A stretch of 64,000 nt of DNA from Candidatus Uhrbacteria bacterium (GTDB lineage Bacteria; Patescibacteriota; Patescibacteriia; GWA2-47-26), in contig JACPJN010000007.1 in NCBI GenBank assembly GCA_016187515.1, positions 228,778-292,777 on the forward strand, in the 5' to 3' direction. Position 1 is the stretch's first letter. Each line of letters opens with the position of its first letter. A program made the translations under genes and the position numbers. Below the pieces are notes generated by a model that saw only the letters and a list, made by a program, of their open reading frames with translations, was not told the origin of the DNA and ran no database searches. This document shows positions 9,150 through 51,764 of the stretch, one piece after another.

Positions 9150-9186
9150 GAAAAAAGTCCTACCCCGGATGGCCGGAAATAGGACT
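9150..9186 (-). terminator. rho-independent terminator of the GC-islet gene
   Basis: Minus-strand reads AGTCCTATTTCCGGCCATCCGGGGTAGGACT followed by TTTTTT. 7-bp stem AGTCCTA/TAGGACT. Confidence 0.55.
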
Positions 9187-9230
9187 GCTGACCTGGATCA
9201 GCTAGGAAAAAGGTTCATCGAGCAGAGGGA

Positions 9231-10229
9231 CTACAGGGTCTGGAGCAGGCGCGCCGCCACGGCCATCGGCACTCCGCCATCCACCCCGGTCCAGCTCGTC
9301 ACCTCGGTCAAGACCGCGCGGGCCTCGTCCGTTCTGCCGAGCGACTTGAGCGCCCGGGCCTTGTGGAGCTTGAGCGAGAGCACCACGTTGGCAAACGAGG
9401 TCAGGGTTACCTCCGGAGCAACGAGCGCCGCGTCCGCCGCCGCGATCTGCGTTTCCGGATCGGCGATCTCGGAGACCTGGAACAGCCGCTTCCAGCTAGC
9501 GTACGCCGTCGGGAAGGTACCGCTCCGCAGCTCGTTCCGATCGTCCTCGCGTTCGAGGTAGTCCCGCTCGGCCAAGAGGTGCGCGAACCAGATGTGCCAG
9601 GTCGCGTTCTCCTGCATCCAGAGCGGGTACTTCTCGGTCGTGGCGCGCACAAGCTCCCGCATCTGCCGCAGGTGGGCGAGCTGTACCGCGATCTCCGGGG
9701 AGCTGTCGCGCGTGATGGAGTCGGAGGTGTACTCGACCGCGACCAGGAAAAGGCCAACCGGCGCCTTCTCCTGCCGTCCGGCCGCCATGAAGTAGTTGGC
9801 CGAGGCGAGCTGGGAGTTTCCGGCCTCGCGGTAATGCCGCAAACCGCGAAGCACGATCCCGAGGTTGTAGCAGACGCTCGCTCCCAGCAGGTACTTGAAC
9901 TGACCGGACGGGAGATCCTGGATCAGGTCGTCCCTGATCCGGGCGTACGCCGTGGCTACGGTGTTGTGATCCGCGGCGTTGGGCGGGCGTCGGCGGCCAT
10001 TCCACTCCTCGACCCGGCAGGCGAGCCGCATTGCCGGATCGGTCGTGCGGTTGGAGGCGAGCTCAAACAGGTGGGCGTAGCGGGCCGGATCTTGCGGCGC
10101 GCCGTTTCTGCCGGAAAGCAAATCGCCCACCGGATGACCCATGAAGAAGTCCGCTCCCAACGGCTCGGCGACCAACCTGGCCGCGAGCGCTTCGTCAGAT
10201 GCTGTCCAATCCCAGGGTGTCGAATCCAT
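9231..10229 (-). CDS. hypothetical protein encoded on a GC-rich islet
   Basis: 332 aa minus-strand ORF with balanced composition. Local GC far above flanking genes. Overlapping plus-strand ORFs (9363..10277 and others) are Arg-rich antisense artefacts. Own hairpin + T-run terminator downstream (9150..9186). Confidence 0.5.
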   Translation of the reverse strand: MDSTPWDWTASDEALAARLVAEPLGADFFMGHPVGDLLSGRNGAPQDPARYAHLFELASNRTTDPAMRLACRVEEWNGRRRPPNAADHNTVATAYARIRDDLIQDLPSGQFKYLLGASVCYNLGIVLRGLRHYREAGNSQLASANYFMAAGRQEKAPVGLFLVAVEYTSDSITRDSSPEIAVQLAHLRQMRELVRATTEKYPLWMQENATWHIWFAHLLAERDYLEREDDRNELRSGTFPTAYASWKRLFQVSEIADPETQIAAADAALVAPEVTLTSFANVVLSLKLHKARALKSLGRTDEARAVLTEVTSWTGVDGGVPMAVAARLLQTL

Positions 10230-10335
10230 TGTTGCTTCTCCTCTTGTTTATCTGCCGGTTGCCTTGCCAACCGGTAGATATGATGGAACACTCTTGCACA
10301 AGGTACCTTATATATAACATGGCGGCTTAAAAATG

Positions 10336-10980
10336 TCAAGGCCGCATTTGTAAAATTTTCCTGGCCGGTATACCAACATAGGTACCCGGCTCCAGACAAT
10401 CTTTGGTTACTGCCGCGCCGGCGCCGACAGTACAATGGTCGCCAATAGTTTTATATTGCACCACTGTTGCGCCTACACCTATAAGAGAATGCGAGCCGAC
10501 TTTAACGCCGCCTGAAAAAGTTACCCCCGGCGCAATATGGGTAAAATCTCCGATCACGCAATCATGATCAATGGAAGCACGGGTGTTAATAATCGCGTAA
10601 CGCCCAATGCGCGTACCGGAATTGATGACCACCCCATCCATAACTACGGTACCCTCACCAATTTGTACATCTTCATTCACGACCGCAGTCGGCGATACAA
10701 TCGCCGGCATGGTAAACCCCAACCCGCGCAGTTTCTCAACCAGCCGCTCGCGTAAATCATCTTTGCCTAAATATCCCAGGCCGAGCACTGCCGCACACTC
10801 ACCATGCCGCGCTTTAATATCATGAAGAACATCATCAGTTCCAATATATGGCAAGTAAAGTAGTGGCCCTTGATTCTCGCGGTCGGTATAGCCAAGAATT
10901 TCAAAGGTGTTGAGTTTTTTCAGGATGCTGGTTACAACTTTCGCATGACCGCCACCGCCAATGACGACAATTTTCTGCAT
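10336..10980 (-). CDS. hexapeptide-repeat sugar acetyltransferase (NeuD/PglD-like)
   Basis: ORF 10336..11037. Probable start MQKIVVIGGGGHAKVV at 10980. C-terminal left-handed beta-helix repeats (IGDFTHIAPGVTFSGGVKVGSHSLIGVGATVV). Confidence 0.8.
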   Translation of the reverse strand: MQKIVVIGGGGHAKVVTSILKKLNTFEILGYTDRENQGPLLYLPYIGTDDVLHDIKARHGECAAVLGLGYLGKDDLRERLVEKLRGLGFTMPAIVSPTAVVNEDVQIGEGTVVMDGVVINSGTRIGRYAIINTRASIDHDCVIGDFTHIAPGVTFSGGVKVGSHSLIGVGATVVQYKTIGDHCTVGAGAAVTKDCLEPGTYVGIPARKILQMRP

Positions 10981-10987
10981 ACAATGG

Positions 10988-14337: not shown

Positions 14338-14453
14338 AGATGAGTGTAATTGACCTAATTAACCTAAGTGCTCTAATTGACCTAAACAATAACCAATATT
14401 GGGATTTGGGACTTGTTTAGAATAATTAGGTTAATTAGAGTAATTAAAAATTC
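14338..14453. repeat. AT-rich intergenic palindromic element, family R subtype 1
   Basis: CTAATTGACCTAAACAATAACCAATATTGGGATTTGGGACTTGTTTAGAATAATTAGGTTAATTAGAG. Arms pair around a central ATTGGGATTT core. Fills the whole ugd-like/ahcY intergenic gap. Confidence 0.75.
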
Positions 14454-15917
14454 TCAAGTACCTTCCTCCCATGAACTCAAATACTTTCTTTGCTCCTCGG
14501 TTAATTCATCTTTGCGCACCTCCATTGCCTCAAGCTGCAACGCGGCAATGTCGTCATCTACTCTGGATGGTAACACATAGACCTTTGGCTCGAGTTTCCC
14601 CAGGTTCTCCACAAGATACGCACAAGCCAAAGCTTGCCCGCAAAATGAAAGCGACATCACCTCTGAAGGATGACCTTCTGCCGCGGCCAAATTCACCAGC
14701 CGCCCTTCGCCGGCGACATACAACACGCGGTCATCCGTCATCGGTTCACGGTTCACGGTTTGTGTTGATTTACTGTGAACTGTCGACTGTGAACTGTCGA
14801 CTGGCAAAGTATATTCATCCAGCATCGTCCGCACCGTCCGCACACCCTTTGCCATCTCCCGCAGTCCTTTCAAATCAATCTCCGCGTCAAAATGTCCGGA
14901 ATTGGCCAGAATCGCGCCGGATTTCATTTTAGAAAAATGCTCTGGACGCAAAACATGTTTGTCACCCGTAACCGTAATAAAAATATCGCCAAGCGTGGCG
15001 GCTTCCGCAAGCGGCATCACCCGAAATCCATCCATCACGGCTTGTAGTGCGCGAAACGCGTCAACTTCACACACAATCACATTTGATCCCATGCCGCGCG
15101 CGCGCAAAGCCACGCCTTTGCCGCAGGAACCGTAACCACACACGACCACGGTTTTGCCCGCCCACAAAATATTGGTCGCCCGCGTAATCCCATCCAGCGT
15201 GGATTGCCCGGTGCCATAGTAATTGTCCATCAGATGTTTGGTCTTATTGTCATTCACTGCTACAACCGGGTATTTAAGCGCGCCGTCGCGCTCCATCGCC
15301 CGCAAGCGGATAAGGCCTGTTGTGGTTTCCTCGGTCCCGCCAATTAAATTCGCAATAAACTCCGGGTGTTTTTTGTGAATTTCACCAACTAAATCCCCGC
15401 CATCGTCAATGGTGATCAAATTTCTCCCACCCCTCCTAGCCTCCCCTCGGGTCCCGGCTGCGGCCGAGGATCCTCGATTCTCGAGAATCGGGACAGGGGA
15501 GGAAATTGATTGTTCTCCCCCTCTTAGAGGGGGAGATTCAGAGGGGGTCCGAACCTCTACTTTCATGAACTCAATCACCCGATTTAGAAAATCGTAGTAT
15601 TCCTCATTACTCTCGCCCTTATGTGCAAATACGGCCACGCCTTCCTCCGCGAGCGCCGCCGCCACATCATCTTGAGTGGATAATGGATTACATCCGGTAA
15701 TCGCAACCTCGGCCCCGCCAGAGCGAAGCGTGCGCACCAGCACTGCGGTTTCTTTGGTCACATGCAAGGCCATACCGACAGTCACACCCGCCAATGGTTT
15801 TTCGCGCGCAAACCGCTTTCGCACTTCCAAAAGCGCGCCCATTCTACGTTCGGCTAATTCAATCTGCAGCCGCCCTTGCGGCGCAAGCGAAATGTCTTTT
15901 ACCTTGTATTGTTCCAT
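14454..15917 (-). CDS. ahcY: adenosylhomocysteinase carrying two in-frame repeat-element insertions
   Basis: ORF 14454..15947; probable start MEQYKVKDISLAPQGR. Conserved AhcY blocks (GCNPLSTQDDVAAAL, NAD site VVVCGYGSCGKGVA, HPSEVMSLSF). Inserted peptides SESPPLRGGEQSISSP...GEARRGG and PVDSSQSTVHSKSTQTVNREPM coincide with DNA repeat elements. Confidence 0.9.
   Translation of the reverse strand: MEQYKVKDISLAPQGRLQIELAERRMGALLEVRKRFAREKPLAGVTVGMALHVTKETAVLVRTLRSGGAEVAITGCNPLSTQDDVAAALAEEGVAVFAHKGESNEEYYDFLNRVIEFMKVEVRTPSESPPLRGGEQSISSPVPILENRGSSAAAGTRGEARRGGRNLITIDDGGDLVGEIHKKHPEFIANLIGGTEETTTGLIRLRAMERDGALKYPVVAVNDNKTKHLMDNYYGTGQSTLDGITRATNILWAGKTVVVCGYGSCGKGVALRARGMGSNVIVCEVDAFRALQAVMDGFRVMPLAEAATLGDIFITVTGDKHVLRPEHFSKMKSGAILANSGHFDAEIDLKGLREMAKGVRTVRTMLDEYTLPVDSSQSTVHSKSTQTVNREPMTDDRVLYVAGEGRLVNLAAAEGHPSEVMSLSFCGQALACAYLVENLGKLEPKVYVLPSRVDDDIAALQLEAMEVRKDELTEEQRKYLSSWEEGT
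14742..14802. repeat. CTGTGAACT-type tandem/inverted repeat (family Q) in-frame in ahcY
   Basis: CGGTTCACGGTTCACGG...CTGTGAACTGTCGACTGTGAACTGTCGAC. Encodes PVDSSQSTVHSKSTQTV. Confidence 0.75.
15425..15552. repeat. family P palindromic element inserted in-frame in ahcY
   Basis: ...CGATTCTCGAGAATCG (perfect palindrome) ...CCCCCTCTTAGAGGGGGAGATTCAGAGGGGGTCC. Encodes SESPPLRGGE...RGEARRGG inside AhcY. Confidence 0.75.
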
Positions 15918-15962: not shown

Positions 15963-16736
15963 TCAAAGTTTTTGAGCAATGAATTGCGGGAATTTCAACA
16001 CCCGTGCCCCTTGGTCCGGGCGAATCAACAACGGCTCAACTTCTTTGGCCAGCGCTTTAAAATCAAGTTTTCCGCAATAATCATACACTTGTTTAATCAA
16101 TTTGGAAACTGTCAAACCCATGGCCGCTTTTACATAATCTTCACTGGGTTGTGTAATTCCATACAAAAAACTCACATCATAAAAATCGCGTCCTTTTGTC
16201 CGCTTACGCTGTAAAATCGTGATTAATTTCTGCGCTAGCAAAATATCTTCCGGATTTACTAGCAGATCATAAAACAGATCAAATTTGTTGATGGTATGCG
16301 CACGCGGCGTAAACACTTTCTTTTGCGCCATACTCTCCATTTTAATAAGAATCTTTTCGCTCGCGTGATCACTTATTTTATGCTCATGCAGTAGATGGGG
16401 AAATTTGATGTAGCAATGATACGCGCCTTTTTCTAAAAATCTAAATTCAACCGTAAGGCCCTTACGTCTCATGTCGTCTATTACCTGGTTAAGCATGGCT
16501 TGAAATGCCGAAAAAGAAAGTCCAAAATTATCAAAATCAAGATCTTCGGAAAAGCGATTTCCTTGATAACATATCCGAATTGAGGTTCCGCCCATAAAAC
16601 TTAATTGCTCACTGCCTTTCTGTTTATACAGCGAATCCAGCAGTTCATATTGGAGATATTCAACCAGGACGCGGCGAGGCGAAATAAACTCTTCGTTTTT
16701 TGTATAGTGATCTTTTAACTGCGTGAAGGTGAACAT
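15963..16736 (-). CDS. nucleotidyltransferase AbiEii/AbiGii toxin family protein
   Basis: 257 aa. GGTSIRICYQGNRFSEDLDFD matches the AbiEii hG[GS]...DhD nucleotidyltransferase motif. Overlaps the upstream antitoxin gene by 22 nt. Confidence 0.8.
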   Translation of the reverse strand: MFTFTQLKDHYTKNEEFISPRRVLVEYLQYELLDSLYKQKGSEQLSFMGGTSIRICYQGNRFSEDLDFDNFGLSFSAFQAMLNQVIDDMRRKGLTVEFRFLEKGAYHCYIKFPHLLHEHKISDHASEKILIKMESMAQKKVFTPRAHTINKFDLFYDLLVNPEDILLAQKLITILQRKRTKGRDFYDVSFLYGITQPSEDYVKAAMGLTVSKLIKQVYDYCGKLDFKALAKEVEPLLIRPDQGARVLKFPQFIAQKL

Positions 16737-17335
16737 AGGGCAAGCAATTCGTTAACCAGCTGATCTAAACGCTTGGAGTGGAACTGCTTAACATATTTTT
16801 TAATCCGGGCGCGGTTTAAGGTGGTACTCATGGTTTCGTAATCAAACCGCATTCCCTCCAGGTCGTCGCGAGTCCGTATCGCGCGCGGGTTGAGATAAAA
16901 ATAATCCAGCAATGCTTTTTCAGGGTGCGCAAACAAATACTTACCATGCTTTGTCTCTATATCCCCATATCCCCAAAAAAGTTTGGGTACAATAGTACGG
17001 TAGCTAAACCTGCCAAATTGGTTCGCGATCGTCCGCGTTGGCCGCGTGGTTACCGAAGTGCACACTGCCACCATCTCTGGAATAAACCCATAGTGATGCA
17101 GCGCGTACTCTAAACTAATATAACTTGGTTCATACAGCAGAAACGCGACCTCCTCCGGTATCACCTCTTTCTTACGCGCGGTAAAGACAAAAATCCCGCG
17201 CTGAATTTTTTCAATATCACCCATGCCCTGCCAGCGCGAAAGTTGGTAATCCGGCACCTGGAGATTCCGAATACGCAATTCTGTCCTTGTAAAATAGGGC
17301 TTTTCTATGATTTTAGTAAATTCTCTATATTTCAT
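16715..17335 (-). CDS. type IV toxin-antitoxin system AbiEi family antitoxin
   Basis: 206 aa. Sits immediately upstream of and overlapping the AbiEii gene. N-terminal wHTH-like region (FTRTELRIRNLQVPDYQLSRW), the usual AbiEi architecture. Confidence 0.65.
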   Translation of the reverse strand: MKYREFTKIIEKPYFTRTELRIRNLQVPDYQLSRWQGMGDIEKIQRGIFVFTARKKEVIPEEVAFLLYEPSYISLEYALHHYGFIPEMVAVCTSVTTRPTRTIANQFGRFSYRTIVPKLFWGYGDIETKHGKYLFAHPEKALLDYFYLNPRAIRTRDDLEGMRFDYETMSTTLNRARIKKYVKQFHSKRLDQLVNELLALCSPSRS

Positions 17336-17675
17336 AAACTTAGCAAAAATGATAAGTTACTGAAATACTATAAAATTATCAAAGTCTTGTCAACTGTGGA
17401 TAAAAAAGCCGCCGTGGGGAATTAATCCCGTTGGCGGCAACGCGGCAGGTGCGTGCGACCTGTTATAGCTGTATGGCGGACTCACCCCGTCGGAGACCAC
17501 GAAAAACGGCGGGCGAATCAGTCGGGCATCCTCGCTCACCCGCGCTGACCCCAGATCAAAGAGCGATTCAATTCGCATTACGGCCTCCTTGACGATTGAA
17601 TAATCATCTGCTAACACCCTACCACTGCTCGCCTAAAATGTCAATGCATTGCACTCCCTACTCGACCTCTCCTCA

Positions 17676-20753: not shown

Positions 20754-20892
20754 ATTTGAAAAATTCCAATAAACAAGTTACAGATTACAAACAAATCCAA
20801 AATCCCAATATTCAATGTCCAAACTTGTAATTTGGAGATTGTGATTTCCTTGTAATTTGGTGCTTGGGATTTGGAATTTAAATCTTGCCATT
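20754..20892. repeat. AT-rich intergenic palindromic element, family R subtype 2
   Basis: ACAAACAAATCCAAAATCCCAATATTC...CTTGTAATTTGGAGATTGTGATTTCCTTGTAATTTGGTGCTTGGGATTTGGAATTT. Confidence 0.75.
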
Positions 20893-21849: not shown

Positions 21850-21851
21850 AT

Positions 21852-21940
21852 TGGGTAAATCAGGTGAATCAAGTAAATCATGCAAGTCAAGCTCTTGATT
21901 TACTTATCTCGCTTGCTTTACTTGATTTACTTCAATTAAG
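21852..21940. repeat. AATCAAGTAAAT / ATTTACTTGATT hairpin element, family S
   Basis: GTGAATCAAGTAAATCATGCAAGTCAAGCTCTTGATTTACTTATCTCGCTTGCTTTACTTGATTTACTTC. Creates a spurious N-terminal ORF extension of the kinase gene. Confidence 0.75.
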
Positions 21941-26660: not shown

Positions 26661-26800
26661 AAGAAAAACAGGGAAAAATTCACCTAATTATCCTAATTGA
26701 CCTAATTATTCTAAACAATACCCAAACCCAAAATCCCAATTTTGGTGATTGGAAATTAGGATTTGTTTAGATCAATTAGAGTAATTAGGGCAATTAGAAA
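26661..26800. repeat. AT-rich intergenic palindromic element, family R subtype 1
   Basis: CACCTAATTATCCTAATTGACCTAATTATTCTAAACAATACCCAAACCCAAAATCCCAATTTTGGTGATTGGAAATTAGGATTTGTTTAGATCAATTAGAGTAATTAGGGCAATTAGAAATT. Abuts the hup stop and the FtsH-paralog start. Confidence 0.8.
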
Positions 26801-27079
26801 TTACGCGCGAAGCGCGTCTTTTAAGGTTTTCCCGGCTTTAAATTTGGGAGTTCTGACCGGGGGGATTTCGATTGGTGCTTTGGTCTGCGGATTAATTCCG
26901 GTTCTGCCCTTTCTCATCTTGGCCAAAAACGCGCCGAATCCGGAGAGCGTAACTTCGCCGCCGCCTTTAATCGTCTCGGTAATCACCCCGGTCATGGTCT
27001 CCAGAATCTCCAAAACCTTGGCTTTGGGCACGTCCGCGACCTTTTGAGAAATTACTTCCGCGAGTTCTACTTTGTTCAT
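26801..27079 (-). CDS. hup: HU family DNA-binding protein
   Basis: 92 aa. MNKVELAEVISQK...GFGAF...RTGINPQT matches the HU/IHF fold signature. Confidence 0.85.
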   Translation of the reverse strand: MNKVELAEVISQKVADVPKAKVLEILETMTGVITETIKGGGEVTLSGFGAFLAKMRKGRTGINPQTKAPIEIPPVRTPKFKAGKTLKDALRA

Positions 27080-27080: not shown

Positions 27081-27170
27081 TTGGTGAGTTATTTAGTTAT
27101 TGGGTTATTAGTTATTAGTTATTAGTTATTTCTGCGCCAATTTTAATAACTTAATCACTTAATAACTTAA
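27081..27170. repeat. palindromic tandem heptamer element (GTTATTA)n / (AATAACTTAATCACTT)n
   Basis: GTTATTGGGTTATTAGTTATTAGTTATTAGTTATTtctgcgccaattttAATAACTTAATCACTTAATAACTTAATCACT, between ymdB stop and hup start. Confidence 0.8.
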
Positions 27171-31299: not shown

Positions 31300-31331
31300 G
31301 AGCCCCACGGCAACGTCGGGGCTCGTTTTTT
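31300..31331. terminator. bidirectional rho-independent terminator
   Basis: GAGCCCCacggcaacgtcGGGGCTC followed by TTTTTT on plus strand. Lies between convergent genes ending at 31222 (+) and 31338 (-). Confidence 0.6.
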
Positions 31332-31337
31332 AAAAAT

Positions 31338-31937: not shown

Positions 31938-31940
31938 ATC

Positions 31941-35635: not shown

Positions 35636-35728
35636 GGTATTGAAAAACTTTCGGTATTCTGCTATATTATAACATACGCGCCGCGGTGGTGAAATGGCAA
35701 ATTTACCCCGTAAGCTCTTGCCCAGATG

Positions 35729-35750
35729 GCGGAACTGGAATACACAGCCC
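35729..35750 (+). other. degenerate partial copy of tRNA-Leu 5' end
   Basis: GCCCAGATGGCGGAACTGGA versus tRNA 5' GCCGAGATGGCGGAATTGGC, 17/20 identical, lying about 30 nt upstream of the intact tRNA. Confidence 0.5.
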
Positions 35751-35760
35751 TCCAAAATTT

Positions 35761-35844
35761 GCCGAGATGGCGGAATTGGCAGACGCACTGGGTTTAGGAC
35801 CCAGCGATCGCAAGATCATGGGAGTTCAAATCTCCCTCTCGGCA
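35761..35844 (+). tRNA. tRNA-Leu (anticodon TAG)
   Basis: GCCGAGATGGCGGAATTGGCAGACGCACTGGGTTTAGGACCCAGCGATCGCAAGATCATGGGAGTTCAAATCTCCCTCTCGGCA. 7-bp acceptor stem, anticodon loop TTTAGGA, long variable arm, T-arm GGAGTTCAAATCTCC. No encoded CCA. Confidence 0.85.
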
Positions 35845-35910
35845 AATTTAGGCGGGCCAATATAACTTAAACAAACTTAATCTTGACAATCCCGGCTCCG
35901 GATGGTAGGT

Positions 35911-36120
35911 TTAAGGGGACTGTTGCGCAGTGCGCTTTCGTAGCGAAAGGTAAGAATTTCGAGCGAGCCGAAGCAAAAATTATGAAGCATATACGGAGTA
36001 TCTGTTGAGTAATTTTTGCAAAGGCGCAGCCGAAATTCTTACCTTGCAGTAGAAATTTGCAAAGGCGCAGCCGAAATTCTTACCTTGCAGTAGAAATGGC
36101 ACTGCGCAACAGTCCCCTAA
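35911..36120. mobile_element. MITE-like structured element: 19-bp perfect terminal inverted repeats (GGGGACTGTTGCGCAGTGC) enclosing two tandem 42-bp hairpin units
   Basis: TIRs at 35911-35929 and 36099-36120. Internal direct repeat TTGCAAAGGCGCAGCCGAAATTCTTACCTTGCAGTAGAAAT x2 (about 36011-36097); each unit is itself a hairpin. A third solo copy of TTTAAGGGACTGTTGCGCAGTGC lies at 40880-40903. Confidence 0.55.
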
Positions 36121-36145
36121 AGAACTAGGCAATCCCGCCTGGTTT

Positions 36146-36655
36146 ATGGAGGAAGTTATGCCGAAGCAGCGCCAGTCCGGTGCGCGAACCTTCAATCCTG
36201 CCGACGTCTTGAAAATTGCCAGGGAGGCCCTGCGTGATGTCTGCGGAGCCGCCGATACCGACGGCCGGGCCGGCGGATACTTTGGCCTGTTTCCCAAAGA
36301 CCGCTTCCGCCGAAACGGTTTTCCCGCGATTCTGGAGCCCATCGGGAGAATCAAGCCCGGAAAACGCGCCCTGGCCAAAAGGCGCGCGCAGGAAAAGCCC
36401 CGCCGCTTGAGCAGACACCCGGATCATGTGAGCAGCCACCAGAGCCGCGATGAAAAACGCGACCGTTGGGGCGGCGCGATCGCCGCCCAAGAATACTACT
36501 TGTCCTTTTCCGGCCTGCCGGAGCTGTGCGACGAAACGCTGTCCCTCATTGTCGCCCGCAAGCTTGGGCTGTTGACCGATAAGCAAGCCAGACGAATCGC
36601 CGGCATCAGCGGCAACCGGCTCTTCAGAGAATGGGCCGCTACCCATCGCGTCTGA
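36146..36655 (+). CDS. GC-rich hypothetical protein
   Basis: 169 aa; the start may be MPKQ at 36158, preceded by GGAGGAAG. High GC. Basic and Arg-rich. Followed by hairpin CTCCCCGCAGTACTGCGGGGAG (36661-36682) and a T-run. Confidence 0.45.
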   Translation: MEEVMPKQRQSGARTFNPADVLKIAREALRDVCGAADTDGRAGGYFGLFPKDRFRRNGFPAILEPIGRIKPGKRALAKRRAQEKPRRLSRHPDHVSSHQSRDEKRDRWGGAIAAQEYYLSFSGLPELCDETLSLIVARKLGLLTDKQARRIAGISGNRLFREWAATHRV

Positions 36656-36737
36656 ACCCACTCCCCGCAGTACTGCGGGGAGGTCGAAAAGGGTTCTCTT
36701 TTTTTACCGTACCACGGTATGATAGGATTCCACCCGT

Positions 36738-37238: not shown

Positions 37239-37294
37239 TTGACAGGTGCCTCTCGTTATGCTACAGTGGTATCGATCGCGGCACAGATGCCGTA

Positions 37295-39031
37295 TTGATC
37301 ACAACCCTGGTTTTCGAAGAAAGGAATGGTGCTAAAATGGCATTCATTGCCCCGAAGTTCCGACGTGAATCGTGGTACGGGCGACTGTACCTGCGCGCGT
37401 ACGGCGAGGATCGCGGGTGGCTCGTCCGCCTCAAGCTGGCGGGCTCGATCGGGTTCGACTACGCGCCGTGCCCGGAGTTCCCCGCCGATGTCCCCGAGGC
37501 CGAGCGCATCGGTGCGGCCGTTGACTGGCGCAGGCGGAGCGACGAAGCACATCAGCGCTCGCTCGCGTTCCTCATGATGCCGCCAGCGGTCCAGCCGTTC
37601 GTCGAGACGGGCCCGAAGGTTTCGATCTGTCCGACGTTCTGGAAGATCGTGTTCGCGATGCTCGTGTACTGTCCGATCGTCGCGCTGCGCGCGATGAGAC
37701 GGGCGATCCGCGATGCGGCGCGGGCGGCGCTCGCGGCGATCGCCTCCGCGTTCCGGTGGACCGGCCGTCGGTTCGGTCGGCCGCTCGCGTGGATGACCGC
37801 CGGCGCGTTCGTACTTGCCAGCTACGGCATGGGCGTCTACATGATCGCAGCGGTGTCGTACGGCGTGACCGGCTATCTCATGGGTCGTGCCGGCATCAGT
37901 CCGGAGGAAGCGCTGCTGCAAGTGGTGGAGGCGCAGACGCGTGCCGAACGCGAGCAGCTTCGCCAGGACTACCTCAAGGAGTGCGCCGCGAGCATCCGAG
38001 CCGAAGCGGAGAGGACCGTTGAGTCCTACCCGGAGTGCGATACGTTCGTTCTCATTGGCGGGATGTCGCACGAAGAGCAGGCGAAGCGGTGCGTCGGCCG
38101 CGACGAGCGGTATCTCTCCGAGATCAAGGCAGTCGAGGGCGGCGACCACGACTGCGTGGTGCAGGAGATGTATGGTTGGAGAGGTCTTGTCTTCGCGCGT
38201 CTGTTCCCCGGTGAGGCCGAACGAAAGGAGCTCGCAACATGGCTCGCGGCAAAGCTCCGCGAGCGGTTCGCGAAGGAGGTGCAGGCCGGTCTCGACTCGC
38301 GCGAGCGGCGGATCGCCGAGGCGCGCAAGGAGGACGCGAAGGTCGTCGGCGCCGCGGTCGCGAAGCTCGTCCCGATGCAGCATGATCCTCGCAAGCTCTA
38401 CGAGCAGTTCACGGCCAACTGTCGGTACGAGGAGTACGACAAGCGGTGGGTCGCGAGGTATGGGCACGGTGTCGTCTCGAACGCGACCTGTGCGACGCTC
38501 GCCGGACTGTTCGGCCCGCAGATCGAGGACGCGCAGTTCACGATCCGGTGGCAGGAGAGGAGAACAGCGCTCCGACAGTACGGGCCGGGCGTCGGGAAGG
38601 GGATCGGGTTCGTGGTCGGTGTCGTGTTCCTTCTCGCACTGCTCGTCGTGCTCCTGGACAGGTACATCCGCGCAATCGGTCGCGCGCTCGCGTGGTTTTT
38701 AGACAGGATTGTCTGGCCAGTCGGCAAATGGACCGTGATCATCGCGACCGCGCCGATCTGGATGCCGGTGCGGTACCTCGTCTGGCCGGCGCTCTGTCTG
38801 GTCGGGCGGAGTTTCCGGTCCGTCGGGCTCGCGTTCGGGCTCGCGTTCTGGAACGTCTGGCTCGTACGCACGGTTCGCTCCGCGTTCGTCTCCGTGTTCA
38901 CCGGCATCGCCTCCGGCATCCGCCGGTTCGCTGCCGCGACGCGGCAGGTCCTCGCGGACACCTGGCACCTCATCCGCGCCTTCGCGTCCGCGAAGTGGGA
39001 ACGCCTCTGCCCGTTCATCGAGTGGTCGTAA
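37295..39031 (+). CDS. GC-rich hypothetical polytopic membrane protein
   Basis: 578 aa; start possibly MAFIAPKF at 37337. Multiple hydrophobic helices at both ends and a central soluble Cys-containing domain. Local GC very high, so several long antisense ORFs appear (37256..38467- and others). Confidence 0.5.
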   Translation: MITTLVFEERNGAKMAFIAPKFRRESWYGRLYLRAYGEDRGWLVRLKLAGSIGFDYAPCPEFPADVPEAERIGAAVDWRRRSDEAHQRSLAFLMMPPAVQPFVETGPKVSICPTFWKIVFAMLVYCPIVALRAMRRAIRDAARAALAAIASAFRWTGRRFGRPLAWMTAGAFVLASYGMGVYMIAAVSYGVTGYLMGRAGISPEEALLQVVEAQTRAEREQLRQDYLKECAASIRAEAERTVESYPECDTFVLIGGMSHEEQAKRCVGRDERYLSEIKAVEGGDHDCVVQEMYGWRGLVFARLFPGEAERKELATWLAAKLRERFAKEVQAGLDSRERRIAEARKEDAKVVGAAVAKLVPMQHDPRKLYEQFTANCRYEEYDKRWVARYGHGVVSNATCATLAGLFGPQIEDAQFTIRWQERRTALRQYGPGVGKGIGFVVGVVFLLALLVVLLDRYIRAIGRALAWFLDRIVWPVGKWTVIIATAPIWMPVRYLVWPALCLVGRSFRSVGLAFGLAFWNVWLVRTVRSAFVSVFTGIASGIRRFAAATRQVLADTWHLIRAFASAKWERLCPFIEWS

Positions 39032-39062
39032 GAGAGCAGATCTTGATCATTCTTGCCCCGTA

Positions 39063-39125
39063 CAGGTTTCCGGCATCACGCCGGGGGCTCGCACGGGGCG
39101 TTTTTCTTTTAAAATCCCCGCTGCT
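39063..39125 (+). terminator. putative rho-independent terminator after GC-islet membrane protein gene
   Basis: GCCCCGTACAGG...CTCGCACGGGGCGTTTTTCTTTT; GC stem CCCCGT(a)C / G(c)ACGGGG with a T-run. Confidence 0.4.
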
Positions 39126-40866: not shown

Positions 40867-40879
40867 ATTCCCGCGTGGC

Positions 40880-40903
40880 TTTAAGGGACTGTTGCGCAGT
40901 GCC
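40880..40903. repeat. solo copy of the MITE-like terminal repeat TTTAAGGGACTGTTGCGCAGTGC
   Basis: Identical 23-mer to 35907-35929 (the left TIR of the tRNA-Leu-adjacent element). Lies between pilB start and the downstream membrane-protein gene. Confidence 0.65.
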
Positions 40904-40905: not shown

Positions 40906-41877
40906 TTAGATTACTTTGCGATGCAGGAGATGACCAAACCGGGAAGTAAGACGGATAATCTTGGCGGTGGCGCCTTCCTCACGCAGGCGCATAAACAGCA
41001 GCACCCAGGAAGCGTATTGAAAAGTCACAAACGCGGAACCGATCAGCAAGAGCGCCGCCAAATACGCGGCCGCCCCGACTGCCACGATTACCCAAAGCAG
41101 CGCCGGAACATTCAAAAACACCGCGATTGAACCCGCCAGCAGCAGCGGTATTCCCAAAGCGAACATGGCGAGCAGAACGCCGACCCCGACCAAAAGCGTG
41201 ATAAAGTAAAGAATCAGCGCCAGCTCGATGGAGACCAGCCAGTGCTGCGCGAAAATTGAAAACGCTTCCCGCAGTGATTGTAAGAAGGTGTGTCCATCAA
41301 GAATAACCAGCACCGCGGCGTAGATGCCCAGAAAAGATAAGATCAGTGAAAGTAAGGTGACTAAAACAAAGGCGAGCAAGAACAGCGTAAAGGTGAGCGG
41401 AGACGGCCCTTGCGCGACTAAAGGATTGATCAAGAACCAATACAGCAGAATGTCCAGCCGCGTCAGCAGGCCAATCCCCAGCAGCGGAAAAAAAGCGCGC
41501 GCTCCGCGCTTTAAAAGCGCCGGAATACTTTCTTTTCGCCCAGGACTAGCGGTCTTCGCCAGCGCCCAAATCAGTCCGCCGCGAGCGGCCGTCACCAAAA
41601 CGAGCAGAGCCGCCATTACGGCAAGCGCAATAAACGAGAGGCCCAAAAGGACGGCGAATTGCCAAAAATTCAGACCGGCAAACGGCAAGAGCAAAGAGCT
41701 TGCTCCGGCAAGAAAGCCGGGTCCTGGCAGGCGTTCCAGGGCTTGGTTAAAGGTCTGGTAGGCGCCCAGATCACCCCAGAATACGGCCAAAAGCCCCAGC
41801 GCCCAAAACCGCTTATAATTCCAGGTCGTTTTCCAGGCCTCCCGCAAAATGTGCCGATAAAGCGTATCCTCCTGCAT
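40906..41877 (-). CDS. hypothetical multi-pass membrane protein
   Basis: ORF 40906..41922. Probable start MQEDTLYRHILREAWK at 41877, since the N-terminal extension is encoded by an intergenic hairpin repeat. About 6 TM helices. Confidence 0.45.
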   Translation of the reverse strand: MQEDTLYRHILREAWKTTWNYKRFWALGLLAVFWGDLGAYQTFNQALERLPGPGFLAGASSLLLPFAGLNFWQFAVLLGLSFIALAVMAALLVLVTAARGGLIWALAKTASPGRKESIPALLKRGARAFFPLLGIGLLTRLDILLYWFLINPLVAQGPSPLTFTLFLLAFVLVTLLSLILSFLGIYAAVLVILDGHTFLQSLREAFSIFAQHWLVSIELALILYFITLLVGVGVLLAMFALGIPLLLAGSIAVFLNVPALLWVIVAVGAAAYLAALLLIGSAFVTFQYASWVLLFMRLREEGATAKIIRLTSRFGHLLHRKVI

Positions 41878-41886
41878 ATTTATGGA

Positions 41887-41970
41887 GTGAATCAAGTAAA
41901 TCAAGCGAGGCATGTAAATCAAGGGCCTGATTTACCTGATTTACCTGATTTACTTATCTTACTTAATTTA
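41887..41970. repeat. family S hairpin element
   Basis: GTGAATCAAGTAAATCAAGCGAGGCATGTAAATCAAGGGCCTGATTTACCTGATTTACCTGATTTACTTATCTTACTTAATTTAC. Confidence 0.75.
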
Positions 41971-45303: not shown

Positions 45304-45885
45304 ATGAAGACGTTCGTTCTTTGTACAGCAGTTCTGGCCGGATGCCATGCACCCACTCGCGGTACCACGCCCGTCCGCATCAAGGCAGCGCCTTCGCAGT
45401 ATACCTGCCGCGATCTCGCCAGAGACACGGCATCGTATCCGGGAGAGGAAAACGAGAGGCCTTCACCGCGCGTATTCTCTTGCCATGACGATACGTGCTG
45501 TTCGACGGATGTGCTCCATGTGACCCCCATGGTCGAAGAGATGATTGCGGTTGAGGGGTCGTGGGAAAGCGCCGTGTTGATTCCCCATGACTCAAACGGA
45601 GAAATGATCCAGCTGGGCATCCTCTTTCGAGCAGGAGAGCTGGAGGTAGAGCCGGGACTCAAGGTAACGTTGTTCAAGTTCACCTACCCCTCCTTCATGG
45701 CGCTCGAGAATGGCGGAACGCTCACCGCATTCATCACCACCTCCGCAAGCAACATTAAGGCTGGACCGGATGGTCGTCTCCCTTTGCGGGACAGTGGGTG
45801 TCGTGACGTGCGCATCATCCTCGCACCTTCCACGCCGGTTCCTCTACGTCCTGCGGTCCCATCGGAACCGGCACAGTCGATCTGA
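45304..45885 (+). CDS. GC-rich putative lipoprotein
   Basis: 193 aa. Signal peptide with lipobox MKTFVLCTAVLAGC. Elevated GC. Cys-rich. Hairpin + T-run (CCGGTGTCGCG...CGCGACCCGG CCTTTTTTTT) downstream at about 45905-45960. Confidence 0.5.
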   Translation: MKTFVLCTAVLAGCHAPTRGTTPVRIKAAPSQYTCRDLARDTASYPGEENERPSPRVFSCHDDTCCSTDVLHVTPMVEEMIAVEGSWESAVLIPHDSNGEMIQLGILFRAGELEVEPGLKVTLFKFTYPSFMALENGGTLTAFITTSASNIKAGPDGRLPLRDSGCRDVRIILAPSTPVPLRPAVPSEPAQSI

Positions 45886-46025: not shown

Positions 46026-46574
46026 TTATATGTCCAACACTCTGATGCCAGGAATCTTTTGAAATCTTTCAACATCGTAGGTGTAGAGTCGGGCTACACC
46101 ATTGCTAAGCATAGTTGCCGCCAGGACTACATCATAAATATGTTTGCTTCCAAACCCGAGTTGTCTCATCAAGTTAATCACATTGTCGTGTACATTCATC
46201 GGCGGCGTAATGAGGGAAAGAGAATCGGCGAGTTTTGTCATTTCGTCCAGCGCCTCGGTAGGTGTAATAGGTTTTGCCACTCGCGCAGGATTGGTTACTA
46301 CTGCGAAAAATTCAAAAAGAATTTGTGGCGCAAGGCAAGCATTCAGTTCACCCTTAGTCGCACGATCAAGTAGTGCGCGACATGTAGTATGATACTCGCT
46401 GTCCGCATTATATGCGTATACGAGTATGTTCGTATCCAACAAAGCAGTATCCGGAGCAATTCCAGATACTGCAGTCGCATTGACCGTTGTGTTCAACCCA
46501 AGGAAAGGTGGGGCCATTCCGCTAGTAAATGTAGTGAATGCAACACTAGCCGAGGGATCAAATGAGCTCTCCAT
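46026..46574 (-). CDS. vapC: PIN-domain ribonuclease, type II toxin VapC
   Basis: ALLDTNILVYAYN first acidic PIN residue, later DVVLAATMLSNG. ORF track start 46586 overlaps the antitoxin. The true start is uncertain: MESS at 46574, or a non-ATG codon nearer LLDTNIL. Confidence 0.65.
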   Translation of the reverse strand: MESSFDPSASVAFTTFTSGMAPPFLGLNTTVNATAVSGIAPDTALLDTNILVYAYNADSEYHTTCRALLDRATKGELNACLAPQILFEFFAVVTNPARVAKPITPTEALDEMTKLADSLSLITPPMNVHDNVINLMRQLGFGSKHIYDVVLAATMLSNGVARLYTYDVERFQKIPGIRVLDI

Positions 46575-46776
46575 AGATCTCGTCACGTGTCAAACGTCCC
46601 TTAAGAGCCCCAAGATGCCAAACCCCAAGCCGGTACTTCTTTTTTGGAAGCACTGTGTTTATCGTAGTAATAGTGACATTAAGGGGCTGTCCCTCGGGGA
46701 GGTCCACTCGTTCCAGTGGTTCAAACACCCCCCCACGAACTTGTACGCGAATTGTCTTAGTTAATGTAGTTGCCAT
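46558..46776 (-). CDS. vapB: VapB-type antitoxin (DUF104-like, IxAxYENGV...LPEG family)
   Basis: ORF 46558..46797; probable start MATTLTKTIRVQVRGGVFEPLERVDLPEGQPLNVTI. Directly upstream of and overlapping the PIN gene. Confidence 0.55.
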   Translation of the reverse strand: MATTLTKTIRVQVRGGVFEPLERVDLPEGQPLNVTITTINTVLPKKKYRLGVWHLGALKGRLTRDEIYGELI

Positions 46777-46836
46777 ACAAGATATATGATACATCAACAG
46801 TGCAAAATTGACAAGTCGTTTTTCAGCAACTAAACC

Positions 46837-47568: not shown

Positions 47569-47679
47569 ATCACAAATCACAAATCACAAACAAATTCAAA
47601 ATCACAATATCCAAACTTTGTAATTTGGAATTTGTAATTTCCTTGTAATTTGTTGCTTGAGATTTGGAATTTTCACCGC
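47569..47679. repeat. AT-rich intergenic palindromic element, family R subtype 2, with (AATCACA)n tandem arm
   Basis: AAATCACAAATCACAAATCACAAACAAATTCAAAATCACAATATCCAAACTTTGTAATTTGGAATTTGTAATTTCCTTGTAATTTGTTGCTTGAGATTTGGAATTTT. Confidence 0.8.
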
Positions 47680-48552: not shown

Positions 48553-48558
48553 GAGAGT

Positions 48559-49422: not shown

Positions 49423-49424
49423 TT

Positions 49425-50159
49425 ATGCTGGGAGTTCAAAATCTTAAAAAAAACTTCGGCGGCATCCAGGCCGTTGACAACTGTACTTTTAGCGTTGAAC
49501 CGCGGCGGATCACCGCGCTTATTGGTCCCAATGGCGCCGGAAAAACCACACTCTTTAATGTGGTGGCCGGGGTGGTTCCATCGGATGGCGGCACGGTGCG
49601 CCTGGGGGGGCATGACCTCACGCGTCTGCCAATCCACCTCCGGGCTCGGCTCGGGATCTCGCGAACCTTCCAAACCGTCCGCAATTTTTCCAACCTGAGT
49701 TTGGAAGAAAATCTGCGGCTGGCGGCCGAGCCGCGGGATCAGCATTTTTGGCAATCAATTTTTATTCCACGGAGCGCTCCCAAAAACCAACTGCTCGAGA
49801 TATTGAAGCGTGTCGGTCTAGAACAACCGCTTAATTACCCGTCCAAAGATCTTTCCTACGGGCAGAGTAAACTACTGTCGCTGGCCCGCGCGCTCTTAAT
49901 GCCGCACAAAATTCTGATGTTGGATGAGCCGGTCGCCGGAGTCGCTCCAACCTTGCGCGAGCAGTTTAAAGAGTTGTTGCCTGATCTTCAAGCGCGCGGC
50001 GAAACCATCTTTTTTATCGAGCACGATATGGATTTTGTCCGCGCCGTCGCCGACACGGTGATTGTCATGGATCAAGGCCGGGTGCTTACGGAAGGAACAC
50101 CCAATGAGGTACTTCGCGACCAGCGTGTACTTGATGCCTATCTTGGGGAACAACTCTAA
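49425..50159 (+). CDS. livG: ABC transporter ATP-binding protein (LivG-type)
   Basis: 244 aa. Walker A GPNGAGKTTLFN; signature LSYGQSKLL; Walker B ILMLDEP. Confidence 0.85.
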   Translation: MLGVQNLKKNFGGIQAVDNCTFSVEPRRITALIGPNGAGKTTLFNVVAGVVPSDGGTVRLGGHDLTRLPIHLRARLGISRTFQTVRNFSNLSLEENLRLAAEPRDQHFWQSIFIPRSAPKNQLLEILKRVGLEQPLNYPSKDLSYGQSKLLSLARALLMPHKILMLDEPVAGVAPTLREQFKELLPDLQARGETIFFIEHDMDFVRAVADTVIVMDQGRVLTEGTPNEVLRDQRVLDAYLGEQL

Positions 50160-50283
50160 AATTTCTAATTCACCTAATTAACCTAATTATTCTAAACAAT
50201 GTCCAATTCTCAAGCCCCAATTTTGGTCATTGGATATTGGGATTTATTTAGGTCAATTAGAGCAGTTAGAATAATTAGAAATT
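50160..50283. repeat. AT-rich intergenic palindromic element, family R subtype 1
   Basis: AATTTCTAATTCACCTAATTAACCTAATTATTCTAAACAAT...ATTGGGATTTATTTAGGTCAATTAGAGCAGTTAGAATAATTAGAAATT. Ends immediately at the livF ATG. Confidence 0.8.
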
Positions 50284-50988
50284 ATGCTTCGTATAAGCAA
50301 TCTCACTTCCGGTTACTCCGGCAATGAAGTCCTGCACGATATTTCCCTGCATGTTGCGCCCGGAGAAATTGTGGGACTGATTGGCCCCAACGGCGCCGGA
50401 AAATCCACGGTGCTGCGCTCGATTTTTCAGTTGGCGCAGATCAAGCGCGGTGCGATCACGTTCAAGAAACATGACGTCACGCGCCTGCACACCCACGATC
50501 TGCTGGAGCTGGGGATTGGCTTTGTGCCCCAGGGCCGGCTAGTATTTTCCAATCTGACGGTGCAGGAAAATTTGCGCATGGGCGGGTTCCTGCTCAACAA
50601 CAAAGATGTGCTCACGCGCAACATGAACGATGTGCTGGCGCGCTTTCCAGTGCTGCGCGAGAAACTCCGCGACAAAGCCCGCAACCTTTCCGGCGGCCAA
50701 CAGCAAATGCTGGCCATTGGCCGGGCGCTCATGATGACCCCGCAACTGCTTTTGCTTGACGAGCCCTCGCTTGGGCTCTCACCAAAAATAATGGGTGAAA
50801 TTGTGGAGATTTTGAAACAGCTCAACGCCGCCGGCGCCACCCTTATGATTGTTGAACAAAACGTGCACCTGCTTTTGGAATTCGCCACCCGTCTTTACGT
50901 GCTGGCCGCCGGCCGCGTGGTTGCGGAAGGCCCGCCTGAACAATTTCACGATCCGGCCGTACTGCGAAAACTTTACTTTCAGGAATAA
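50284..50988 (+). CDS. livF: ABC transporter ATP-binding protein (LivF-type)
   Basis: 234 aa. GPNGAGKSTVL; LSGGQQQML; LLLLDEPS. Confidence 0.85.
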   Translation: MLRISNLTSGYSGNEVLHDISLHVAPGEIVGLIGPNGAGKSTVLRSIFQLAQIKRGAITFKKHDVTRLHTHDLLELGIGFVPQGRLVFSNLTVQENLRMGGFLLNNKDVLTRNMNDVLARFPVLREKLRDKARNLSGGQQQMLAIGRALMMTPQLLLLDEPSLGLSPKIMGEIVEILKQLNAAGATLMIVEQNVHLLLEFATRLYVLAAGRVVAEGPPEQFHDPAVLRKLYFQE

Positions 50989-51158
50989 AAAAGCAAATTT
51001 TTGCTCGATCAGCTAGGCGGCCTTGACCCAAAGATGAGCGCAAGGGCGCCCAAATAGAAGAAGCCGATCCTTCGATGAAGGATCGGCACGGAAGAACAGC
51101 TGGATGCGGCGACGCTACATGCCGCGCGCGAGCACGCTGATCGCGCACATCTGGGTCG

Positions 51159-51608
51159 TCAGCGACGGTCCCGCGCCTGCGTCATGACATCTCGGGTCGC
51201 CTTGAGCTCGCCCTGGAGTGCCGCAACCTCCGGCCGGAGGTTGTTGACGGTCTCCCGGAGGTTGTTGACGGTCTCCGTAAGGTGCTGAACGCTCTCATCG
51301 AGCTTGGTGACCTTCTCGCCGAAGGGCTCGATGGCCCGCGAGACCCTGTCCTCGAGGCCCTTGACCGTCGTCCACGCGGTACCTGCGGAAATCATGGCTA
51401 CGGCGACGATCACCGTCGCAAGCCACCACCAGGATGGGCGCGAATCTCGCGTTCCCTTGAATTCCCGACGTTGTAAGTCCACGACGACCGCTCTGAATTC
51501 TGTGATCGCCTGCAACATCACCGCACGTTCTGGCCGCAGCGCTTCCAGAATCTCTCTGACGTCCGACTTGGTAGCCGGCGTTGGCTCGGCCGGTGGCAGA
51601 GGATCCAT
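51159..51608 (-). CDS. GC-rich hypothetical membrane-anchored coiled-coil protein
   Basis: 149 aa. Central TM WWWLATVIVAVAMISAG. C-terminal tandem peptide repeat TETVNNLRETVNNLR. GC well above neighbours. Perfect 11-bp-stem hairpin GCCGATCCTTCgatgAAGGATCGGC downstream at 51061-51086. Confidence 0.5.
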   Translation of the reverse strand: MDPLPPAEPTPATKSDVREILEALRPERAVMLQAITEFRAVVVDLQRREFKGTRDSRPSWWWLATVIVAVAMISAGTAWTTVKGLEDRVSRAIEPFGEKVTKLDESVQHLTETVNNLRETVNNLRPEVAALQGELKATRDVMTQARDRR

Positions 51609-51764
51609 GGGTGCCGTCCTGTCTTGGCGCTGGTCCTCACCTGACCACCAGGGCGCCGTGCCTACTGGTCATGGCGCGGACCCCCGCCGACCACCTCTCC
51701 TTCTATTCAACCACACCGGCAGGATCCGTCAAGGACGCATAAGTTAAGATACATCTTGCACTCC

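Follow-up and report, generated by a model that had tools for sequence, protein, structure and literature searches.

A 64,000-nucleotide stretch of DNA (the window, meaning the whole stretch analysed) from a 318-kb contig of Candidatus Uhrbacteria (candidate phyla radiation, CPR; Patescibacteria), carrying HYW17_ locus tags at NCBI, contains a series of single genes, here called islets, that are richer in GC than the genes around them. The best-supported reading, to which we give a probability of about 0.68, is that the islet genes were imported horizontally from higher-GC sources; at least five single genes, possibly six, would be recent imports from lineages of ~60–68% GC. A preliminary description of this DNA had proposed repeated horizontal acquisition of single-gene cassettes at seven places, and the proposal is supported by the foreign composition of the islets, by their codon usage and by junctions reproduced in independent assemblies. 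Homologue searches covered three islet families, those of the 332-aa (islet 1), 377-aa (islet 3) and 564-aa (islet 5) proteins; all three are real and conserved, and two of them have a composition that fits the high-GC genomes or viral contigs in which they occur. That the transfer ran in this direction, and recently, we infer, and the donors would most likely have been high-GC Patescibacteria-like bacteria.

Composition, codon usage and expression signals

The mean GC content of the window is 0.511. Measured against 48 non-islet genes of the window (GC 0.493 ± 0.045; GC at third codon positions, GC3, 0.524 ± 0.074), five of the seven proposed islets are clear outliers, with GC z scores of 2.6–3.9 and GC3 z scores of 2.4–4.5. 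These are islet 1 (9231–10229, minus strand; GC 0.666, GC3 0.86, GC z 3.8), islet 3 (30089–31222, plus strand; 0.612, 0.70, 2.6), islet 4 (36158–36655, plus strand; 0.622, 0.72, 2.8, taken over the open reading frame (ORF) from 36146), islet 5 (37337–39031, plus strand; 0.667, 0.85, 3.9) and islet 7 (51159–51608, minus strand; 0.629, 0.76, 3.0). Islet 6 (45304–45885, plus strand) is marginal, its GC of 0.582 (z 2.0) being equalled by the housekeeping gene comM at 52684–54216, and islet 2 (17390–17617, minus strand; GC 0.557, z 1.4) is no compositional outlier. The richness in Ala and Arg once ascribed to the whole set likewise characterises the five strong islets (z 2.5–4.1) and is lacking in islets 2 (z 0.5) and 6. 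In the strong islets GC3 exceeds GC1 and GC1 exceeds GC2, the pattern of real coding sequence from a GC-rich genome. The sharp compositional borders that had been described are evident in 60-nt windows, in which high GC starts and stops at the ORF ends and the flanking spacers lie at 0.37–0.60.

Codon usage was compared, as the correlation of relative synonymous codon usage, with the window's own genes and with three high-GC genomes (L016, L018 and L022), each carrying homologues of an islet family. Islet 5 correlates at 0.93 and 0.94 with the two of these in which the 564-aa gene (X) lies in the order groEL-X-pyk, as against 0.29 with the window's own genes. The corresponding values are 0.81 and 0.82 versus 0.42 for islet 1, 0.77 and 0.81 versus 0.20 for islet 7, 0.68 and 0.64 versus 0.33 for islet 3, and 0.58–0.66 versus 0.20 for islet 6, whose synonymous codon use is also atypical by its z score (−2.8); islet 4 is ambiguous. 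Codon usage matching the host would have marked the islets as old native genes, but the codons of islets 1, 3, 5, 6 and 7 are unlike those of the host and like those of high-GC genomes that bear homologues.

A hairpin followed by a U-run lies 3′ of all six ORFs whose flanks were folded. A consensus scan found two sigma-70-like promoters, upstream of islets 3 and 5, and a third, upstream of islet 1, was read by eye, so that the expectation of an own promoter or terminator at every islet holds for terminator-like hairpins at all six and for promoters at three. Each import would have retained, or since acquired, a sigma-70-type promoter, a Shine-Dalgarno sequence and an intrinsic terminator of its own, and an islet so equipped would, we propose, be transcribed alone, leaving its neighbours undisturbed. 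The promoters are presumed to be functional.

Junctions in independent assemblies

The window derives from a metagenome-assembled genome (MAG) and its compositional steps are abrupt, both of which are what would be expected if high-GC pieces of another genome had been joined into a CPR contig during assembly or binning. Such chimerism, which the preliminary description had held open as the alternative to transfer, is contradicted by independent per-run assemblies. Twenty-five Logan contigs, assembled from more than 10 sequencing runs, are 100.000% identical to the window and bridge both junctions of islets 1, 3, 5, 6 and 7, those of islet 7 being reproduced in 11 contigs. At islet 4 the right junction only is bridged, as all contigs there start at 36092, 54 bases upstream of the ORF; the spanning of both junctions thus excludes islet 2 and the left side of islet 4. 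Where Logan contigs break (14445, 28216, 36092, 50159–50163 and 54339), they do so at tandem-repeat spacers and not at islet borders. The compositional steps also match the ORF ends exactly, the ORFs are flanked by host-like AT-rich promoter and terminator DNA, and at least 11 false joins, all falling exactly between genes, are not credible. Chimerism is effectively excluded.

Islet 3 encodes a protein with sigma region 4

The 377-aa protein of islet 3 (30089–31222, plus strand) carries a Cys-rich motif (CxHG...CxxC) in its N-terminal part, a conserved domain (ARYFCLxGEE) in the middle and, at the C-terminus, a helix-turn-helix that matches Pfam Sigma70_r4 (E 1.6e-5, residues 340–369). The gene is preceded by a promoter-like TTGACA-17-TAGTAT (29991–30019) and followed by a hairpin and U-run near 31300–31332. 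Sigma70_r4 is the only domain detected, with no sigma region 2 or region 3 found by Pfam or NCBIfam, and NCBIfam sigma models match at their C-terminal ends only, far below cut-offs. The C-terminal ~50 residues thus resemble sigma-70 region 4 domains, aligning to the ends of the RpoD, RpoS and MzaA models, whereas the other ~320 residues are family-specific and without known relatives. One homologue is named at NCBI 'sigma factor-like helix-turn-helix DNA-binding protein', and the islet 3 product is, as judged from its domain content, a predicted DNA-binding protein with sigma region 4 only and not a sigma factor.

The search returned 22 homologues that share the Cys-rich N-terminus, the central ARYFCLxGEE domain and the helix-turn-helix, the best at 75% identity. 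One homologue (L042; GC 0.479, GC3 0.39) lies in a 48% GC contig among ruvA, femAB, a murein ligase gene, def and rpoB; another (L022; GC 0.609) lies in a ~60% GC region of a complete 1.17-Mb Patescibacteria genome; and a third (L026; GC 0.669, GC3 0.87) is full-length, at 38% identity, on a 163-kb, 68% GC IMG/VR contig. The GC content of the family thus tracks that of the genome in which it resides, which shows that the family is not intrinsically GC-rich and, in turn, that the window copy (0.61, against 0.49–0.55) bears a foreign, higher-GC signature.

Some of these contexts bring phages into consideration, both as possible further donors of islet 3 (phages of the Patescibacteria-like bacteria named above) and as the basis of a different explanation, in which the islets are remnants of phages or mobile elements, such as morons or decayed prophage genes, and did not come from cellular donors at all. 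Besides the 68% GC IMG/VR contig, a 31-kb phage-like contig encoding a phage-type DNA polymerase and a methyltransferase holds a partial 377-aa homologue, the neighbourhood of the L022 homologue includes a recombinase gene along with Phage_30_3 and AbiEii genes, the islet 7 protein shows weak similarities to DUF2730 and Rz-like spanins, and the promoter-gene-terminator layout is that of a moron. Elsewhere the searches came back empty: no PHROG family matched islets 1, 3, 4, 5 or 6, IMG/VR pattern scans were negative for islets 4 and 7 and for the families of the 564-aa and 332-aa proteins, and tblastn against GenBank phages and PLSDB plasmids returned nothing for islets 1, 3 and 5. The window contains no phage structural gene or integrase, and in its home lineage the 564-aa gene belongs to a syntenic region of the chromosome. 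Mobile or foreign DNA is, moreover, usually poorer in GC than its host, not richer. A phage or mobile-element origin for the islets as a whole is very unlikely.

Islet 1 encodes a TPR-like superhelix

Islet 1 (9231–10229, minus strand) lies between a pglD-like acetyltransferase gene and neuB in a glycan-biosynthesis cluster. An AGGAG Shine-Dalgarno sequence stands ~8 nt before its ATG, and a sigma-70-like promoter, TTGACA-17-TATATA, is read by eye at 10312–10340 (minus strand), being absent from the consensus-scanner list. The terminator that had been described beside this gene is borne out by folding: directly after the ORF and before neuB, at 9150–9186 (minus strand), the hairpin AGUCCUAUUUCCGGCCAUCCGGGGUAGGACU is followed by UUUUUU. 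The 332-aa product is predicted with high confidence (pLDDT 94.9, pTM 0.92) to be all-helical from residue 12 and to form a 17-helix superhelix resembling tetratricopeptide repeat (TPR) proteins. A word-indexed search found three relatives, and a HMMER profile search found 98 representative clusters, nearly all of 320–350 aa, with amino-acid compositions from low-GC to high-GC types; the best identity is 60%.

The nearest known comparison is with the TPR sensor domains of RRNPP receptors (Rap, NprR, PlcR, AimR) and with MalT domain III. The 332-aa protein has the TPR superhelical peptide-binding domain expected of an RRNPP receptor, but of the N-terminal effector modules found in such receptors, a helix-turn-helix or a Rap-type 3-helix bundle with phosphatase activity, the helix-turn-helix is detected in it by neither Pfam nor NCBIfam. 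No plausible small ORF for a secreted propeptide lies downstream of the gene in the spacers of the window, L023 or L024, those of the window and L023 holding terminators. RRNPP membership was set aside, and because neither a peptide gene nor a helix-turn-helix was found the protein is filed, from its modelled fold, as a putative protein- or peptide-binding scaffold. A viral structure search (BFVD) with the model returned generic repeat proteins only.

One relative comes from a genome related to that of the window organism (L023), whose AhcY is 83–86% identical in protein and 75% in DNA. Its copy (60% identity; GC 0.635 against 0.52–0.56 there) lies directly upstream of ahcY; in the window the 332-aa gene is 4.2 kb away on the opposite side of ahcY, and the slot upstream of ahcY holds an AbiE pair. 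The composition-corrected identity at four-fold sites between window and L023 is 0.32 for the 332-aa gene and 0.20 for AhcY, a difference that is not significant. A third homologue (L024, GC3 0.86) stands beside an AbiEi-like gene with a GC3 of 0.33, on a contig of only 1.8 kb.

Islet 5 and a 62–65% GC lineage

Islet 5 (37337–39031, plus strand), between tsaE and a pilB-type ATPase gene, encodes a predicted membrane protein, as originally described, but its start is most likely the ATG at 37337 because all homologues begin MAFI or MALI, which gives 564 rather than 578 aa. A promoter-like TTGACA-17-TACAGT lies upstream at 37239–37267 (plus strand; consensus scan) and a folded terminator downstream at 39053–39110. 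The protein is helical with several membrane segments; its structure model is poor (pLDDT 59) and a fold search was uninformative. Nine relatives at 51–62% identity form with it a ten-member alignment with 118 invariant columns, among them the blocks MAFIxPKFRRESWYGRLYLRAYG and DTWHLIRAFASAKWERLCPFIEW; the N- and C-terminal blocks are strongly conserved. In a further sequence (L046, 6–1565) a copy of the family is cut off after about residue 215 and followed by a 325-aa ORF on the opposite strand; this copy may have been disrupted by an insertion sequence, with the 325-aa ORF as a guessed candidate transposase.

Two contigs, L016 (GCA_030649845.1) and L018 (CAZPCZ010000044.1), carry the gene in the order groEL-X-pyk, with GroELs that are 90% identical, and a third, L045, has it before pyk. 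All three are uniformly 62–65% GC, and the 564-aa gene, at 0.655–0.674, is ordinary there. The window copy groups with these copies, and its context, tsaE-X-pilB, is a different one. All ten known members of the family are GC-rich in amino-acid composition.

Synonymous sites of this gene behave unexpectedly. At composition-corrected four-fold sites the window gene is similar to the L016 (10001–11695) and L018 (4773–6464) copies at 0.45–0.49, and L016 and L018 are similar to each other at 0.495, whereas their syntenic neighbours (groEL, pyk, mgtC and a fast-evolving hypothetical gene) reach 0.14–0.28. A neighbour whose protein evolves equally fast reaches 0.18. The conservation is strongest in the N- and C-terminal blocks and is found despite a protein identity of just 60–65% among the three genomes. 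Exchange of the gene faster than the genomes diverge, constraint at the nucleotide level and an overlapping feature are possible causes; long antisense open frames are present, but are expected in DNA of 66% GC.

These observations bear on whether the islet genes arrived at all. They could be long-standing residents of the Uhrbacteria clade, their GC content kept high by a gene-specific force, such as gene conversion or repeated homologous replacement with high-GC relatives as the source, or synonymous-site selection. The synonymous conservation of the 564-aa gene (0.45–0.50 at only 65% protein identity) and the GC-rich amino-acid composition of every known member are what such residence would lead one to expect, as is the GC-elevated copy of the 332-aa gene beside ahcY in L023, with a synonymous similarity no greater than that of AhcY within error. 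Against it stand the ordinary GC of the 377-aa family in a 48% GC genome, the many 332-aa family members of AT-type composition, the different slots of the 332-aa gene in window and L023, and the close fit of islet codon use to high-GC genomes. No known mechanism would maintain a GC3 of 0.85 in a handful of unrelated accessory genes when the genome itself stands at 51% GC, and we consider long residence unlikely.

The same lineage raises the question of a host. CPR bacteria are thought to be episymbionts, and the islets could record transfer from a high-GC host organism to its symbiont. The home lineage of the 564-aa family is indeed a 62–65% GC organism without a CPR label, and He et al. (2021, PMC7906910) note agricultural groundwater in which Betaproteobacteria and Ignavibacteria occur together with an Uhrbacteria organism. 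Across the three families searched, no homologue occurs in any named non-CPR organism; of the genomes with homologues only one, that of a Patescibacteria bacterium, is named by its source, and tiny, metagenome-only families would not be expected of genes native to common high-GC hosts. The 11-kb, 65% GC contig CAZPCZ010000044.1 (L018, also L025) is titled 'uncultured Gammaproteobacteria bacterium', but the GroEL encoded beside its 564-aa gene scores 619 bits against E. coli and 654–678 bits against Thermus and Mycobacterium GroEL. Because of the lower score against E. coli the title is doubtful, and the contig is probably mis-binned or mislabelled. A host organism as donor is highly improbable; of the two donors that the preliminary description had suggested, a high-GC host or a phage, nothing demonstrates the first, and viral contigs accompany the second for the 377-aa family only.

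The case for import

Under horizontal import, the genes would have landed in short gaps between core genes or operons, several of which also hold low-GC toxin-antitoxin modules and look like accessory-gene slots. The imported set would comprise accessory proteins: a TPR-type binding scaffold, a DNA-binding protein with sigma region 4, a multi-pass membrane protein, a small basic protein and a membrane-anchored coiled-coil protein. Insertion would have been by illegitimate recombination, since no integrase, att site or target duplication is visible.

Several points weigh against this account. No near-identical donor copy was found, the best identities being 62% (islet 5), 60% (islet 1) and 75% (islet 3), so that recency is read from composition. 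The copy of the 332-aa gene in L023, adjoining ahcY in a different slot, is GC-elevated too; the gene may have been acquired before the window and L023 genomes split, which is hard to square with its unameliorated GC3 of 0.86, or else each genome gained its copy separately. The 62–65% GC lineage lacks a firm taxon: the L016 record is labelled only 'bacterium', the 'Gammaproteobacteria' label of L018 is in apparent conflict with its GroEL, and cluster look-ups yielded only 'bacterium' and 'Patescibacteria group bacterium' as taxa. Homologue evidence covers islets 1, 3 and 5. No relative with an empty site came to light: looking up TsaE by its exact protein sequence gave only contexts already holding islets 4 and 5, and a search of genome contigs anchored on the pilB-type ATPase returned nothing, missing the source genome itself as well. 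Finally, no integrase, transposase, att repeat or target-site duplication was found at any islet.

A more far-reaching version of import, which we regard as distinctly unlikely, is that the islets record an active gene-exchange network between this Uhrbacteria population and the 62–65% GC groEL-X-pyk lineage. If so, that lineage could be a physical partner or host of the Uhrbacteria, or could share phages with them; the products of the shared, fast-evolving genes, namely the 564-aa membrane protein with its unusually conserved synonymous sites and the Rap/AimR-like TPR protein, would be interaction factors, and both could mark CPR symbiont-partner pairs.

The remaining islets

The islet proteins were scanned against Pfam, NCBIfam, PHROGs and PADLOC, and apart from Sigma70_r4, weak TPR matches and coiled-coil noise they belong to no curated family. 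PADLOC gave no match for five of them and one weak match for the islet 3 protein, to a type II restriction enzyme model (E 4.7e-4, ~40 residues); among the neighbouring genes scanned, the only clear match was to AbiEii. Local and viral scans returned nothing for islets 4, 6 and 7. The islet genes had been called ORFans, which is not strictly true of the three families searched, all of which have homologues; the term does convey that the families are small and that every homologue is a sequence known only from metagenomes.

Islet 4 had been described as a 169-aa ORF with a hairpin terminator. A terminator is found by folding at ~36660–36705 (plus strand), but the start is probably not 36146 but 36158, behind GGAGGA, and gene callers give a basic, Arg-rich protein of 165 aa (36158–36655). 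Most independent assemblies have the gene called on the plus strand and one on the minus strand, and its coding status is the weakest of the five strong islets. Islet 7 (51159–51608, minus strand), between livF and an AbiEi/AbiEii pair, encodes a 149-aa protein that combines a single transmembrane helix with a coiled coil and for which the similarities to DUF2730 and to Rz-like spanins are the only ones seen; a folded terminator follows at 51087–51063 (minus strand). The marginal islet 6 (45304–45885, plus strand) encodes a 193-aa putative lipoprotein with an LAGC lipobox and adjoins a PIN/AF2212-like toxin-antitoxin pair. The 75-aa ORF proposed as islet 2 (17390–17617, minus strand) has no family match in Pfam, PHROGs or NCBIfam.

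Repeats, tRNA and route of entry

Islet borders had been thought to coincide with intergenic repeats, and insertion at a tRNA or at repeat families had been suggested as a route. Neither idea is supported. Tandem arrays of 8–9-nt units occupy other intergenic spacers (14347–14459, 20762–20879, 21850–21938, 26676–26806, 27141–27180, 28170–28257, 41875–41967, 47618–47672, 50153–50287 and 59942–60058), several of which are the places where independent assemblies break. Their units include, for example, ACTTACTC, repeated 8–10 times, and GTAAATCAA-type and TAATTGACC-type sequences, and related arrays occur in both orientations across the window. No exact flanking direct repeat longer than 8 nt was found at the islets, the 3′ end of tRNA-Leu occurs once, with no att-like second copy, and Pfam scans and precomputed hits covering nearly every gene of the window include no integrase, recombinase, transposase or phage structural gene.

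The only repeat that touches an islet border abuts the left side of islet 4. It is a nested hairpin of ~215 nt (35908–36125), between tRNA-Leu and the islet, with a fold of −107 kcal/mol (z −11.5). A 25–29-nt motif, GGCACTGCGCAACAGTCCCCTAAAG, makes up the arms in inverted copies, each abutted by TAA, and an exact 41-nt tandem duplication lies inside it. The 25-nt motif occurs three times (0 expected), the third being a solo copy at 40879–40903 in a 39-nt spacer just upstream of pilB. With no Rfam match, the element looks like a miniature inverted-repeat transposable element (MITE) or a structured RNA. In a different part of the window, a 42-nt perfect palindrome, ATTCTGTCCCAAAATCTCACGGCCGTGAGATTTTGGGACAAT, occurs at 54310–54351 and 60671–60712, 6.3 kb apart and flanking the infB region; one assembly break falls on its first copy.

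Five toxin-antitoxin-type modules are found in the 64 kb (15963–17335, 31338–32582, 46026–46797, 51773–52679 and 54960–55574): three AbiEii modules, one DUF6036 nucleotidyltransferase pair and one PIN/AF2212-like pair. All are below their neighbours in GC (0.40–0.52), and three occupy a gap with a high-GC islet, islets 3, 6 and 7 sharing their slots with these low-GC pairs. Together with the slot upstream of ahcY, filled by the TPR gene in L023 and by an AbiE pair in the window, this suggests recurrent gene turnover at a few permissive gaps, in an adjacency that, with seven cases, is not statistically compelling.

Comparison with known systems

The islets are a fresh instance of a known phenomenon, ordinary gene transfer, and no new kind of system. 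Like single-gene genomic islets and phage morons, they consist of one ORF with its own promoter and intrinsic terminator between unrelated genes, their composition and codon usage are unlike those of the host, and accessory toxin-antitoxin genes stand alongside. Unlike those, they shift GC upward, by 12–17 points, and have no mobility gene or repeat scar; and unlike morons they are chromosomal, between housekeeping genes of a reduced CPR recipient, and not inside a prophage. Islets 4 and 5 recall tRNA-linked genomic islands, being 0.3–1.5 kb downstream of tRNA-Leu with the MITE-like element between the tRNA and islet 4, but an integrase, a direct repeat of the tRNA 3′ end and the multi-gene make-up of such islands are all lacking, and tsaE, a housekeeping gene of host GC, parts the two islets.

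The case stands out for its upward shift in GC, for having a CPR genome as recipient and for protein families that are uncharacterised. For CPR/Patescibacteria, hosts and gene-flow partners are mostly unknown, and the islets provide a handle for tracing donors, whether phages, sibling CPR bacteria or hosts: as foreign and intact genes they point to particular high-GC lineages and viral contigs as partners in DNA exchange with this Uhrbacteria population. They also suggest that even a small symbiont genome keeps slots in which accessory genes turn over. As the reverse of the usual AT-rich foreign signature, an upward deviation makes such genes easily dismissed as contamination in MAG curation; in this window they are shown to belong to the chromosome. 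The protein families themselves, comprising a TPR receptor-like fold, a sigma-region-4 DNA-binding protein and a multi-pass membrane protein, come from uncultured organisms only.

Other features of the window

Pfam scans and precomputed annotation place around the islets a glycan-biosynthesis cluster (neuB, degT, pglD-like and epimerase genes), ahcY, two ftsH genes, ymdB, rny, tRNA-Leu, tsaE, the pilB-type ATPase gene, rpsA, a liv ABC transporter, comM and an intein-containing infB. The housekeeping genes earlier named as neighbours of the islets, neuB, rny, tsaE, rpsA and livF, are confirmed.

An intein bearing a LAGLIDADG homing-endonuclease domain splits the IF-2 gene (56055–59651); Intein_splicing and LAGLIDADG_3 are matched there, with IF2_N on one side and the GTPase region on the other. 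Inside the glycan-biosynthesis cluster, a free-standing gene for a GIY-YIG nuclease of 91 aa (5347–5622) has the lowest GC in the window (0.37, z −2.7); its apparent presence or absence between contigs proved to be a gene-calling difference only, the DNA being identical. A 1057-aa protein encoded at 32615–35788 has four lamin-tail domains and an OB-fold. Its longest ORF runs over the start of tRNA-Leu, on the other strand, and because of this overlap its true start is probably further in.

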